Assembly: GCF_003334255.1 (NCBI RefSeq)
Contig: NZ_QOWU01000036.1
DNA: 53,120 nucleotides
Direction: 5' to 3' (one strand)
Source of the DNA: Escherichia coli
GTDB taxonomy: Bacteria > Pseudomonadota > Gammaproteobacteria > Enterobacterales > Enterobacteriaceae
Shown here: positions 43,362 to 49,907 of the stretch, in pieces
How the letters are laid out: every line of letters begins with the position of its first letter
Position numbering within the stretch: position 1 is the first letter of the stretch
Made by a program: the position numbers and the translations under genes
The notes under the pieces: generated by a model
The model's database searches: none
What the model saw: only the letters and a program-made list of their open reading frames with translations
What the model was told of the DNA's origin: nothing

Positions 43362-44480
43362 ATGACTGGAGATAACACCCTCATCCATTCTCACGGCATT
43401 AACCGTCGTGATTTCATGAAGCTTTGTGCAGCATTAGCCGCCACCATGGGGTTAAGTAGCAAAGCCGCTGCAGAGATGGCCGAATCGGTTACTAACCCGC
43501 AGCGTCCGCCAGTTATCTGGATTGGCGCGCAGGAGTGCACCGGTTGTACGGAATCTCTGCTTCGTGCAACGCATCCAACGGTAGAAAACCTCGTACTGGA
43601 GACTATCTCTCTGGAGTATCACGAAGTGCTTTCCGCCGCCTTCGGTCATCAGGTCGAAGAGAACAAACATAACGCTCTCGAGAAGTACAAAGGGCAGTAT
43701 GTGTTAGTGGTGGATGGTTCCATCCCATTAAAAGATAACGGTATTTATTGCATGGTTGCCGGTGAGCCGATTGTGGATCACATCCGCAAAGCGGCGGAAG
43801 GCGCAGCAGCCATTATCGCTATCGGTTCCTGCTCTGCGTGGGGCGGTGTTGCCGCAGCTGGAGTTAACCCAACTGGCGCAGTCAGCCTGCAAGAAGTTCT
43901 GCCAGGCAAAACCGTTATCAATATTCCGGGCTGCCCGCCGAACCCGCACAACTTCCTCGCGACCGTTGCGCACATCATCACTTACGGCAAACCGCCGAAA
44001 CTGGATGACAAAAACCGTCCGACCTTCGCCTATGGCCGTCTGATTCACGAACACTGCGAACGTCGCCCGCACTTCGATGCTGGTCGTTTTGCCAAAGAGT
44101 TCGGTGATGAAGGCCACCGCGAAGGCTGGTGCCTGTACCACCTCGGCTGTAAAGGGCCAGAAACTTACGGCAACTGCTCAACGCTGCAATTCTGCGATGT
44201 TGGCGGTGTGTGGCCGGTGGCGATTGGTCACCCGTGCTATGGCTGTAACGAAGAAGGTATCGGCTTCCATAAAGGCATCCATCAGCTTGCCAACGTCGAA
44301 AATCAAACTCCGCGTTCACAGAAACCGGATGTTAACGCTAAAGAGGGCGGCAACGTCTCTGCAGGCGCTATTGGTTTGCTCGGCGGTGTGGTTGGGTTGG
44401 TTGCCGGTGTCAGCGTGATGGCGGTGCGTGAACTGGGTCGTCAGCAAAAGAAAGATAACGCTGACTCACGGGGAGAATAA
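43362..44480 (+). CDS. hybO: Hydrogenase 2 small subunit (Tat-exported)
   Basis: 372-aa ORF with twin-arginine signal ([15 protein letters not shown]), FeS cysteine motifs and C-terminal TM anchor. Confidence 0.95.
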
Positions 44481-44482
44481 CC

Positions 44483-45469
44483 GTGAACAGACGTAATTTT
44501 ATTAAAGCAGCCTCCTGCGGGGCATTGCTGACGGGCGCGCTGCCGTCTGTCAGTCATGCGGCTGCTGAAAACCGCCCGCCAATTCCGGGATCGCTGGGGA
44601 TGTTGTACGACTCGACCTTGTGCGTAGGCTGCCAGGCTTGCGTCACCAAGTGTCAGGATATCAATTTCCCTGAACGTAACCCGCAAGGGGAACAGACCTG
44701 GTCGAACAACGACAAACTGTCGCCGTATACCAATAACATCATTCAGGTGTGGACCAGCGGCACAGGGGTCAACAAAGACCAGGAGGAGAACGGCTACGCG
44801 TACATTAAGAAACAGTGTATGCACTGCGTCGATCCGAACTGTGTCTCTGTGTGCCCGGTCTCTGCACTGAAAAAAGATCCGAAAACCGGCATTGTCCATT
44901 ACGACAAAGATGTGTGCACCGGCTGCCGTTACTGCATGGTCGCCTGTCCGTACAACGTGCCGAAGTACGACTACAACAACCCGTTTGGTGCGCTGCATAA
45001 GTGCGAGCTGTGCAACCAGAAAGGTGTGGAACGTCTCGATAAAGGCGGTCTACCTGGCTGCGTAGAAGTGTGCCCGGCGGGCGCGGTGATTTTCGGTACG
45101 CGTGAAGAGCTGATGGCGGAGGCGAAAAAACGTCTGGCGCTGAAGCCTGGCAGCGAATACCACTATCCGCGTCAGACGCTGAAATCTGGCGACACTTACC
45201 TGCATACGGTGCCGAAATATTATCCGCATCTGTACGGCGAGAAAGAGGGCGGCGGTACTCAGGTTCTGGTACTGACGGGTGTGCCTTATGAAAATCTCGA
45301 CCTGCCGAAACTGGACGATCTTTCTACCGGTGCGCGTTCCGAAAATATTCAACACACCCTGTATAAAGGCATGATGCTACCACTGGCTGTGCTGGCGGGC
45401 TTAACCGTGCTGGTTCGTCGCAACACCAAAAACGACCATCACGACGGAGGAGACGATCATGAGTCATGA
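44483..45469 (+). CDS. hybA: Hydrogenase 2 ferredoxin-type FeS subunit (Tat signal)
   Basis: 328-aa [14 protein letters not shown] Tat signal, four CxxCxxCxxxCP clusters, GTG start. Confidence 0.95.
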
Positions 45470-46637
45470 TCCACAACCGCTGGGCGGCAAAATCATCAGT
45501 AAACCGGTCATGATTTTTGGACCGTTAATCGTCATCTGTATGCTCCTGATTGTGAAGCGTCTGGTGTTCGGTCTGGGCTCTGTCTCTGACCTGAACGGCG
45601 GCTTCCCGTGGGGCGTGTGGATCGCGTTTGACCTGCTGATTGGCACCGGCTTTGCCTGTGGCGGCTGGGCGCTGGCGTGGGCGGTATACGTCTTTAACCG
45701 TGGGCAATACCATCCGCTGGTGCGTCCGGCGCTGTTGGCGAGTCTGTTTGGTTACTCACTGGGTGGCTTGTCGATCACTATCGACGTGGGTCGCTACTGG
45801 AACCTGCCGTACTTCTACATTCCGGGTCACTTCAACGTGAACTCGGTACTGTTCGAGACGGCGGTCTGTATGACCATCTATATCGGCGTGATGGCACTGG
45901 AGTTTGCTCCGGCACTGTTTGAACGTCTGGGGTGGAAGGTGTCGCTACAGCGACTAAACAAGGTGATGTTCTTCATCATCGCGCTCGGTGCGCTGCTGCC
46001 GACCATGCACCAGTCTTCAATGGGGTCGCTGATGATCTCGGCGGGCTACAAGGTGCATCCGTTGTGGCAGAGCTATGAAATGTTGCCGCTGTTCTCGCTG
46101 CTGACGGCGTTCATCATGGGCTTCTCGATTGTCATCTTTGAAGGTTCGCTGGTGCAGGCGGGTCTGCGTGGCAACGGTCCGGATGAAAAGAGTCTGTTTG
46201 TTAAGCTGACCAACACCATCAGTGTGTTGCTGGCGATTTTCATCGTGCTGCGCTTTGGCGAGCTTATCTATCGCGACAAGCTGTCGTTAGCGTTTGCCGG
46301 TGACTTCTACTCCGTGATGTTCTGGATTGAAGTCCTGCTGATGCTCTTCCCGCTGGTCGTTCTGCGTGTGGCGAAGCTGCGTAATGATTCCCGCATGCTG
46401 TTCCTGTCAGCACTGAGCGCACTGTTAGGTTGTGCAACCTGGCGTCTGACCTATTCGCTGGTGGCATTCAACCCGGGCGGCGGTTACGCCTACTTCCCGA
46501 CCTGGGAAGAACTGTTGATTTCTATTGGTTTTGTGGCTATTGAGATTTGCGCTTACATCGTACTCATTCGTCTACTGCCGATACTTCCTCCTTTAAAACA
46601 AAACGATCATAATCGTCATGAGGCGAGCAAAGCATGA
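45459..46637 (+). CDS. hybB: Hydrogenase 2 integral membrane subunit
   Basis: 392-aa polytopic membrane ORF; overlaps hybA by 11 nt. Confidence 0.95.
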
Positions 46638-48831: not shown

Positions 48832-49312
48832 AGAGATAGCAGGTTTCCAGACCTCCCCGAAGGCGCAAGTACAGGCAGCGTTTGAAGAAATTGCCCGGCG
48901 TTCGATGCACGATCTCTCTTTTCTGCATCCTTCAATGCCGGTGTATGTTTCTGATTTTACGCTGTTCGAAGGTCAGTGGACGGGGTGTGTGATCACCCCG
49001 TGGATGCTGAGTGCAGTTATCTTCCCCGGCCCGGATCAACTCTGGCCGCTGCGCAAAGTGAGTGAAAAAATTGGTCTGCAACTGCCGTATGGCACTATGA
49101 CCTTTACCGTTGGCGAACTGGACGGTGTTTCGCAATATCTCTCCTGTTCGCTGATGTCGCCGCTTTCGCACAGCATGTCGATTGAAGAGGGCCAACGCCT
49201 GACGGATGACTGCGCACGAATGATCCTTTCGCTGCCAGTCACGAATCCGGATGTACCACACGCAGGGCGTCGCGCCCTGCTGTTTGGTCGCAGGAGTGGC
49301 GAAAATGCATGA
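48824..49312 (+). CDS. hybE: Hydrogenase 2-specific chaperone
   Basis: ORF 48749..49312 trimmed to MTEEIAGFQTSPKAQ (162 aa); overlaps hybD end. Confidence 0.9.
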   Translation: MTEEIAGFQTSPKAQVQAAFEEIARRSMHDLSFLHPSMPVYVSDFTLFEGQWTGCVITPWMLSAVIFPGPDQLWPLRKVSEKIGLQLPYGTMTFTVGELDGVSQYLSCSLMSPLSHSMSIEEGQRLTDDCARMILSLPVTNPDVPHAGRRALLFGRRSGENA

Positions 49313-49646
49313 GTTGTCTCTTTGCCAGAGCGCCGTTGAAATTATCCAACGGCAGGCGGAGCAGCACGATGTTAAGCGCGTCACCGCCGTGTGGCTGGAA
49401 ATTGGCGCGCTCTCCTGCGTTGAGGAGAGCGCCGTCCGTTTTAGTTTTGAAATTGTCTGCCACGGAACGGTGGCGCAAGGGTGCGATTTACATATCGTCT
49501 ATAAACCCGCCCAGGCTTGGTGCTGGGATTGCAGCCAGGTGGTGGAGATTCATCAGCACGATGCGCAGTGTCCGCTCTGTCACGGCGAGCGGTTGCGTGT
49601 CGATACCGGCGATTCGCTGATCGTCAAAAGTATTGAAGTTGAATAA
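49305..49646 (+). CDS. hybF: Hydrogenase nickel-insertion protein (HypA paralog)
   Basis: ORF 49251..49646 trimmed to MHELSLCQSAVEII (113 aa); CxxC...CPxC zinc motif. Confidence 0.9.
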   Translation: MHELSLCQSAVEIIQRQAEQHDVKRVTAVWLEIGALSCVEESAVRFSFEIVCHGTVAQGCDLHIVYKPAQAWCWDCSQVVEIHQHDAQCPLCHGERLRVDTGDSLIVKSIEVE

Positions 49647-49658
49647 CCGGAGTTAATA

Positions 49659-49907
49659 ATGTGTATTGGCGTTCCAGGCCAGGTGCTGGCTGTCGGTGAA
49701 GATATTCACCAGCTTGCGCAGGTTGAAGTATGTGGTATCAAGCGCGATGTGAATATCGCCCTGATTTGTGAAGGTAACCCTGCCGATCTACTGGGCCAGT
49801 GGGTGCTGGTACACGTCGGATTTGCCATGAGCATCATCGACGAAGATGAAGCCAAAGCCACATTAGACGCACTGCGCCAAATGGATTACGACATTACCAG
49901 CGCGTGA
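49659..49907 (+). CDS. hybG: Hydrogenase maturation factor (HypC family)
   Basis: 82-aa ORF starting MCIGVPGQV (HypC-type N-terminal Cys). Confidence 0.9.

Follow-up and report, generated by a model that had tools for sequence, protein, structure and literature searches.

Does the region from position 43362 to position 49907 (+ strand) of this Escherichia coli DNA hold a complete and ordinary hybOABCDEFG operon, encoding hydrogenase-2 (Hyd-2) and four dedicated maturation proteins, or does it conceal a lesion or an unannotated element? The initial annotation had described eight intact, tightly coupled genes there, as expected for E. coli, and had called them the largest functional module in the window (the whole stretch of DNA analyzed, 53,120 nt).

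Identity and conservation of the hyb operon

In a profile search, each of the eight open reading frames matched its own NCBIfam Hyb model over the full length and above the curated cut-off, with E-values from 6e-52 to 0. All of them lie on the + strand. The small subunit precursor of Hyd-2 is encoded by hybO (43362–44480, 372 aa, ATG start; equivalog NF007779, 834.7 bits, residues 1–372 of 372), which is followed by hybA (44483–45469, 328 aa, GTG start; equivalog NF008134, 596.9 bits) for the periplasmic ferredoxin-like electron-transfer subunit, hybB (45459–46637, 392 aa; equivalog NF008133, 625.1 bits) for the integral-membrane quinone-reactive subunit of NrfD/PsrC type, and hybC (46634–48337, 567 aa; NF007778, 1273.9 bits) for the [NiFe] large-subunit precursor. 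The maturation genes are hybD (48337–48831, 164 aa; NF007777, 312.9 bits), encoding the Hyd-2-specific endopeptidase; hybE (48824–49312, 162 aa; NF007776, 285.8 bits), encoding the assembly and Tat-proofreading chaperone; hybF (49305–49646, 113 aa; NF009046, 245.3 bits, residues 1–113 of 113, and TIGR00100 hypA, 148.8 bits), encoding the HypA-paralogue nickel metallochaperone; and hybG (49659–49907, 82 aa; equivalog NF007721, 173.5 bits, and TIGR00074, 100.5 bits), encoding the HypC-paralogue chaperone for Fe(CN)2CO insertion into HybC. An open reading frame scan of 43362–49907 revealed no internal stop in the eight genes, 6532 of the 6546 bases are coding, and the gene coordinates equal those in the RefSeq annotations of strain 4/2-1 and K-12 MG1655.

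In BLAST, many E. coli chromosomes matched the operon DNA at 100% identity, and the operon occurs in 5419/5426 complete genomes, at one place per genome. These E-values, together with the identity to annotated chromosomes, place the matches far beyond chance. When compared with the group 1c operon of K-12 MG1655 (b2997–b2990), the same gene order, gene lengths, seven junctions and eight protein sequences were found, and the only difference is one synonymous base in hybO (window position 44234, G here and T in K-12). The 188-nt upstream spacer contains no difference, and the flanks are also the same, with the yghX pseudogene and yghW upstream and yghU and gss downstream. Farther out, the window differs from K-12 in having an IS1 end downstream of gss and in lacking the IS2 in yqiG. 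The presence of eight intact genes, and their expected occurrence in E. coli, are thus borne out, and the ranking as the largest functional module agrees with what the K-12 annotation shows for the remaining window. The ygiL-yqiGHI fimbrial cluster is truncated by the window start. It is virtually certain that 43362–49907 is the canonical E. coli hybOABCDEFG operon. This copy is already known, without anomaly and wholly ordinary.

Subunits and maturation proteins

HybC is identical to PDB 6EN9_L over residues 1–567. Both Ni-binding cysteine motifs that had been proposed for it are retained, RICGVCTTTH near the N-terminus (Cys61, Cys64) and DPCMACAVH near the C-terminus (Cys546, Cys549), and E14, D103, R479 and D544 are all present. 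The proposed C-terminal extension is there as well: a tail of 15 residues, VVDADGNEVVSVKVL, follows His552, the mature crystallized large chain 6EHQ_L ends at residue 552, and the gene for the cognate protease HybD adjoins hybC. HybC carries no signal peptide. With its cysteine motifs and its extension, it is a group 1 [NiFe]-hydrogenase large subunit.

HybO begins with a Tat signal of 37 residues, which contains NRRDFMK, matches the Tat-signal model TIGR01409 at residues 13–37 and ends in A-A-A before E38; the deposited mature Hyd-2 small chains in PDB begin at residue 38. In mature numbering, the ligands of the proximal [4Fe-4S] cluster (C22, C25, C120 and C154, four cysteines only), the distal [4Fe-4S] cluster (H192, C195, C220 and C226) and the medial [3Fe-4S] cluster (C235, C255 and C258) were all found. 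Gly24 sits where a supernumerary cysteine would be, and no such cysteine is present. A C-terminal membrane anchor lies at about residues 337–355. By its Tat signal and cluster ligands, HybO is a small subunit of the standard, O2-sensitive group 1 type. All metal ligands that have been given for Hyd-2 from its crystal structure (PMC5902676) were found in HybO or HybC here. One distal-cluster ligand is printed there as Cys225; the cysteine in the sequence is residue 226.

In HybA, the twin-arginine motif NRRNFIK occupies residues 2–8, and the match to the Pfam TAT_signal family is weak (E 0.3). Both HybO and HybA are described as Tat precursors (PMC5902676), in agreement with the twin-arginine signals initially assigned to them. 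The 16 cysteines of HybA fall into four [4Fe-4S] groups (47–57, 112–124, 145–155 and 174–197) within Fer4_11 and related Pfam families, Pro125 is present, and a C-terminal membrane helix is indicated by a hydrophobic peak at about residues 293–311. HybB matches only one Pfam family, NrfD (PF03916, E 4.5e-18), and shows multiple hydrophobic peaks; 10 transmembrane helices and no haem have been reported for it (PMC5902676). This HybA/HybB-type membrane module, with the absence of haem taken from that paper, is the group 1c architecture. The RefSeq name "cytochrome b" is misleading for HybB, an NrfD-type protein.

As for the maturation proteins, HybD is identical to PDB 1CFZ_A over residues 1–159 and HybE to PDB 2KC5_A over residues 1–162. 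HybD retains E16, D62 and H93, the residues expected from the 1CFZ structure. Nickel metallochaperones of the HypA/HybF type bind nickel through an N-terminal Met-His-Glu and zinc through two CxxC pairs; HybF shows MHE at residues 1–3 and the pairs C73/C76 and C89/C92, and it matches PDB HypA chains distantly. HybG starts with MCIGVPGQ, in which Cys2 directly follows the initiator Met as in the MCxGxP motif of HypC/HybG chaperones, and it matches the PDB HypC entry 2OT2 with an E-value of 1.5e-21.

Gene junctions and non-coding signals

The overlaps are exactly those given at the outset, namely 11 nt for hybA/hybB, 4 nt for hybB/hybC, 1 nt for hybC/hybD (within TAATG), 8 nt for hybD/hybE and 8 nt for hybE/hybF, while gaps of 2 nt and 12 nt separate hybO from hybA and hybF from hybG. 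This geometry is unchanged in an E. coli copy of only 97.6% identity. The length of both 8-nt overlaps hinges on which start is chosen, as the hybE and hybF reading frames open 25 and 18 codons farther upstream, respectively. The annotated hybE start agrees with a full-length profile match (1–162 of 162), with the 162-aa PDB chain 2KC5 and with the Shine-Dalgarno core GGAGG before the ATG; that of hybF agrees with a full-length profile match (1–113 of 113), the N-terminal MHE motif and the core AGGAG. The upstream starts, TTG at 48749 for hybE and ATG at 49251 for hybF, were rejected: neither has a Shine-Dalgarno core, and the annotated Met is residue 1 of the family profiles and of the PDB chain. 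The GTG of hybA is the first possible start, and the next in-frame Met would remove the signal.

A Shine-Dalgarno core of at least 4 nt precedes 6 of the 8 starts, and none was found within 20 nt upstream of the hybO start. Most of the junctions at which stop and start overlap place a Shine-Dalgarno core within the upstream gene, an arrangement indicating that the hyb genes would be carried on one polycistronic mRNA and be translationally coupled. One might further imagine that the initiation layout, in which the leading gene hybO lacks a Shine-Dalgarno core, hybD is joined to hybC by the 1-nt overlap alone and the remaining genes possess strong internal cores, tunes subunit stoichiometry in an undescribed way, initiation at hybO being a built-in bottleneck for Hyd-2 abundance, an idea to which we give very little credence. 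If true, it would refine known biology only slightly, since limitation by HybO has already been reported (PMC5902676).

The hyb promoter and its regulatory sites must lie in the 188-nt spacer between yghW and hybO (43174–43361, + strand). Sites for IscR (type 2) and FNR were sought with their consensus sequences. A candidate IscR type-2 site with one mismatch was detected upstream of hybO at 43261–43285 (− strand). Across the window there were 11 IscR-like matches, against 8.0 expected; this is chance level, and the single match is not significant. An IscR site has reportedly been mapped in one study. No FNR box with two or fewer mismatches was present in the spacer (43174–43361). Repression of hyb by IscR and by nitrate is known (PMC5902676). 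The promoter scan gave 4 promoter-like sites, compared with 6.4 expected from shuffled sequence, and did not place the hyb promoter; a literature search on the hybO promoter returned nothing usable. Terminator-like sites numbered 12, compared with 7.6±2.8 in shuffles, which is no enrichment.

An Rfam E-value scan of 41500–51200 gave nothing inside the operon, and its sole match was the REP-derived naRNA4 (RF02564) downstream of hybG, with 92.6 bits on the − strand and 60.1 bits on the + strand. It falls on a pair of REP palindromes, inverted repeats at 49923–49999 (palindromes 49924–49955 and 49969–49998) between the convergent genes hybG and yghU. When this pair was included in the BLAST query, the number of places per genome went from 1 to a median of 14. 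The pair probably forms the 3' end hairpins of the hybG-side and yghU transcripts, and we infer that it may act as a terminator or stabilizer.

Alternative readings, related systems and proposed function

The operon might be present and yet cryptically inactivated by a small defect, for instance a frameshift, the loss of a ligand residue or start codon, or a polar insertion. Decay and IS activity do occur near hyb, as shown by the frameshift that makes the neighbor yghX a pseudogene and by an IS1 end about 3 kb downstream. Within the eight reading frames, however, no internal stop or change of length occurs; on alignment to the reference proteins, eight of eight were identical to the functional K-12 ones, so that neither a frameshift nor a missing ligand residue, the findings named at the outset as contradicting intactness, was encountered. 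The sole DNA difference is synonymous and the upstream spacer is unchanged. Cryptic inactivation, extremely improbable on these grounds, is refuted at the level of sequence by the identity of the proteins to those of K-12. It is just as hard to credit that the operon harbors an unannotated element, either a protein from a reading frame antisense to hybC (46682–47632) or a terminator or attenuator in hybF (49407–49432). The antisense frame is long (316 aa), but it is codon-aligned with hybC, and its limits coincide exactly with the sole sense TCA/TTA/CTA codons of that segment (46682 and 47732), a pattern that codon bias produces by itself; it was rejected as a shadow frame. The hybF hairpin has a 10-bp stem rich in G+C with a T-rich stretch behind it, whereas terminator-like sites as a class are not enriched over shuffles and Rfam is silent within the operon. 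The ordinary hybOABCDEFG operon therefore remains the preferred reading.

Among related systems, E. coli hydrogenase-1 (hyaABCDEF), an O2-tolerant enzyme of group 1d, is also a periplasmic [NiFe] uptake hydrogenase, whose small subunit carries a Tat signal and whose large subunit is processed at the C-terminus. HybC scores 507 bits against the hydrogenase-1 large-subunit model, below its cut-off of 1101, and hydrogenase-1 PDB chains match HybC at about E 1e-143. Unlike the O2-tolerant enzymes, HybO has a four-cysteine proximal cluster and Gly24 in place of an extra cysteine; the membrane partner of Hyd-2 is HybA plus the NrfD-type HybB, in contrast to the dihaem cytochrome b of hydrogenase-1. 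The closest solved structure outside E. coli is the [NiFe]-hydrogenase 2 of Citrobacter sp. S-77 (PDB 5XVB and related entries), an orthologue from another genus whose sequence is not identical: its small subunit aligns over residues 38–372 with a handful of substitutions, and its large subunit at 1239.7 bits. HybA and HybB also resemble the modules of NrfCD/PsrBC type (HmcBC, QrcCD, polysulfide reductase) in being a ferredoxin and NrfD-like pair, HmcB and HmcC being their next-best NCBIfam matches (207 and 230 bits, far under the equivalog cut-offs); the hyb module differs in that it is attached to a hydrogenase catalytic dimer.

The operon encodes the membrane-bound, periplasm-facing, O2-sensitive [NiFe]-hydrogenase 2 of group 1c, consisting of the HybOC catalytic dimer with HybA and HybB. 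HybG and HybF, with the general Hyp machinery, would equip pre-HybC with Fe(CN)2CO and Ni, after which HybD is predicted to cut behind His552 and release the 15-residue tail. Maturation also requires the general hyp genes, which lie beyond the window. HybE may hold back the Tat signal of HybO as long as the Fe-S clusters or the partner subunit are missing; HybC would be exported by hitch-hiking on that signal, and HybA presumably by its own. Electrons taken from H2 at the NiFe site would travel along the three clusters of HybO and then the four of HybA to reach menaquinone at HybB, a transfer that may be coupled to proton translocation. Hyd-2 activity, Tat export, HybD processing and a single transcript have been described for the K-12 proteins, as have the subunit roles and a proton-pump model (PMC5902676). 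This mechanism is established for the same proteins in K-12 and may be carried over to the present copy through sequence identity; we infer likewise that activity, export, processing and a single polycistronic transcript would be found in the source strain.

The Hyb proteins here are those already crystallized and characterized, and the copy therefore teaches nothing new. It is useful as a positive control, in that the genes, five overlaps, Tat signals and Ni motifs were placed correctly from raw sequence. For E. coli itself, the hyb operon is a core respiratory module, in which H2 oxidation is coupled to fumarate or menaquinone reduction.

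Gene content and identity of the hyb operon

Listing of the ORFs over 42000-51500 showed that 43362-49907 is filled by eight successive ORFs on the + strand, namely hybO (43362-44480, 372 aa, ATG start), hybA (44483-45469, 328 aa, GTG start), hybB (45459-46637, 392 aa), hybC (46634-48337, 567 aa), hybD (48337-48831, 164 aa), hybE (48824-49312, 162 aa), hybF (49305-49646, 113 aa) and hybG (49659-49907, 82 aa). In a scripted check, all eight lengths were divisible by three and none of the ORFs contained an internal stop, which bears out the eight intact genes of the initial annotation; 6532 of the 6546 bases are coding. 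By script, gaps of 2 and 12 nt separate O/A and F/G, and the overlaps are 11 (A/B), 4 (B/C), 1 (C/D), 8 (D/E) and 8 nt (E/F); the five overlaps are exactly those of the initial annotation. Precisely the same geometry was found in strain Ecol_AZ159, whose copy is 97.6% identical; the overlaps are thus a constant trait of the operon rather than something specific to this strain. A 316-aa ORF antisense to hybC (46682-47632, -) was rejected as a codon-aligned shadow frame; it is bounded by the sole sense TCA/TTA/CTA codons of that part of hybC, at 46682 and 47732.

For each protein, its own NCBIfam model aligned from end to end, with a score far higher than the curated threshold (hydrogenase 2 small subunit, 834.7 bits; HybA, 596.9; HybB, 625.1; large subunit, 1273.9; HybD, 312.9; HybE, 285.8; HybF/HypA-type subfamily model, 245.3; HybG, 173.5). 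When the 6546 bases were compared by megablast with all complete E. coli genomes, a match was obtained in 5419 of 5426, with at least 80% query coverage in 5417, and many chromosomes matched the whole query at 100% identity. RefSeq places all eight genes at these boundaries both in strain 4/2-1, a chromosome identical over the operon, and in K-12 MG1655. Base by base, the sole difference from MG1655 in the operon is hybO position 44234 (G here, T in K-12); because this change is synonymous, all eight proteins are those of K-12. Taken together, these results confirm that 43362-49907 is the already known E. coli hyb operon, in support of the earlier hybOABCDEFG reading.

Metal ligands, signal peptides and start codons

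The reference alignment and metal-ligand cysteine check proposed in the initial annotation were run; every ligand is in place and none of the genes is frameshifted, so that nothing contradicting that reading was found. HybC is identical to PDB 6EN9_L over 1-567. Its motifs RICGVCTTTH and DPCMACAVH carry all the ligands listed in PMC5902676, and His552, at which the mature crystallised chain 6EHQ_L ends, is followed by a 15-residue tail, VVDADGNEVVSVKVL. The Ni-binding Cys motifs and C-terminal extension ascribed to HybC are thus both present. For HybO, the ligands in PMC5902676, the crystal-structure paper, are in mature numbering and an offset of 37 was applied, in keeping with an A-A-A/E cleavage site and with deposited chains that start at residue 38. 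The proximal ligands Cys22/25/120/154, the medial ligands Cys235/255/258 and, of the distal ligands, His192, Cys195 and Cys220 are all present; the last distal ligand is Cys226. PMC5902676 gives this ligand as Cys225; in the numbering that fits the ten other ligands, position 225 holds a Gly and position 226 the cysteine, and Cys225 is probably a misprint. Gly24 occupies the position of the extra cysteine in O2-tolerant enzymes, which fits a standard O2-sensitive enzyme.

The twin-arginine signals noted earlier were recovered as NRRDFMK with a TIGR01409 match in HybO and as NRRNFIK at residues 2-8 of HybA. In HybA, 16 cysteines form four ferredoxin-type groups; Pro125 is present, as is a hydrophobic helix at the C terminus. 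Where the two align, HybD does not differ from 1CFZ, and its Glu16, Asp62 and His93 are conserved; HybF retains His2, Glu3 and both CxxC pairs, and HybG retains Cys2. The only Pfam match of HybB (45459-46637) is to NrfD, yet RefSeq names it "Ni/Fe-hydrogenase cytochrome b subunit". HybB is of the NrfD type and is described as haem-free (PMC5902676). The PGAP label for hybF (49305-49646) is hypA. Both labels can mislead automated readers.

Since the hybE and hybF ORFs stay open for 25 and 18 codons 5' of their annotated starts (to TTG 48749 and ATG 49251), the two 8-nt overlaps hinge on the choice of start. The annotated starts are well supported. Family profiles align from the annotated Met (HybE 1-162/162, HybF 1-113/113), the NMR chain 2KC5 is the identical 162 residues of HybE, and HybF requires an N-terminal M-H-E. 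Moreover, Shine-Dalgarno cores GGAGG and AGGAG precede the annotated hybE and hybF starts, whereas the upstream alternatives have no such cores and are disfavoured on all these grounds.

Flanking and regulatory sequences

On the 5' side of hybO lie yghX, yghW and a 188-nt spacer. The dienelactone-hydrolase-like yghX (41932-42767) is a frameshifted pseudogene, with two ORFs abutting at 42357, and is annotated as a pseudogene alike in K-12 MG1655 and strain 4/2-1. A consensus promoter scan gave no more promoter-like sites than shuffled sequence, and the yghW-hybO spacer yielded no FNR box at up to 2 mismatches. At 43261-43285 (-), 77-101 nt 5' of the hybO ATG, there is a candidate IscR type-2 site with one mismatch to the consensus. 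It is a candidate only, because the window holds 11 such matches where 8.0 would be expected, a number that does not differ statistically from chance. Expression of hyb occurs under anaerobic respiratory conditions, with repression by nitrate and, aerobically, by IscR (PMC5902676); given the latter, the site is plausible.

Between the convergent hybG and yghU, there is a REP palindrome pair at 49923-49999 (49924-49955 and 49969-49998), scored by Rfam as naRNA4/CssrE (92.6 bits on -, 60.1 bits on +). With the pair included in the BLAST query, the median rose from 1 place per E. coli genome to 14, in keeping with a dispersed repeat. A hairpin in hybF was rejected as a terminator, being one among terminator-like matches not above chance. 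In the yghA-exbD spacer (38814-39024), two 72-nt units, 97% identical and 113 nt apart, each precede a REP-like palindrome, an arrangement that resembles a composite REP/BIME array.

Overall, K-12 MG1655 is about 99.98% identical to the window. The two differ in that yqiG, a fimbrial usher gene at 1095-3608 (-), is an intact 837-aa ORF here but is interrupted by IS2 (IS2I) in MG1655, whose two BLAST segments join at window 3529-3537. The last 77 bases (53044-53120) are an IS1 end (GGTAATGACTCCAACTTATTGATAGTG...), 84 nt past the gss stop codon, whereas in MG1655 no IS1 follows gss and the sequence runs on towards pitB.

Hydrogenase-2 function and translation initiation

How hydrogenase-2 would work here follows from facts established for the K-12 proteins, to which these are identical in sequence. 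By what is established for these protein families, HybG and HybF would act in metal insertion, HybD would cleave HybC after His552, and HybE would proofread the HybO signal peptide; HybC has no signal peptide and would be exported as a hitch-hiker. The HybOC heterodimer is the catalytic unit; it sits on the periplasmic face, held there by the C-terminal helix of HybO, and HybA is a relay of four [4Fe-4S] clusters that has a Tat signal and an anchor of its own (PMC5902676).

Each of hybA, B, C, E, F and G has a Shine-Dalgarno core, 4 nt or longer, within the gene before it; hybD, at its 1-nt TAATG overlap, has none. Because of these cores and the overlaps, the hyb genes appear to be translationally coupled. 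In contrast to the downstream genes, six of seven of which have a core, the first gene, hybO, lacks any core of 4 nt or more in the 20 nt before its ATG (43341-43361). Supply of HybO is reported to limit the yield of hydrogenase-2 (PMC5902676), and a weak hybO initiation region would be consistent with this. The lack of a Shine-Dalgarno core at hybO could contribute to the low native level of hydrogenase-2 reported in the literature.
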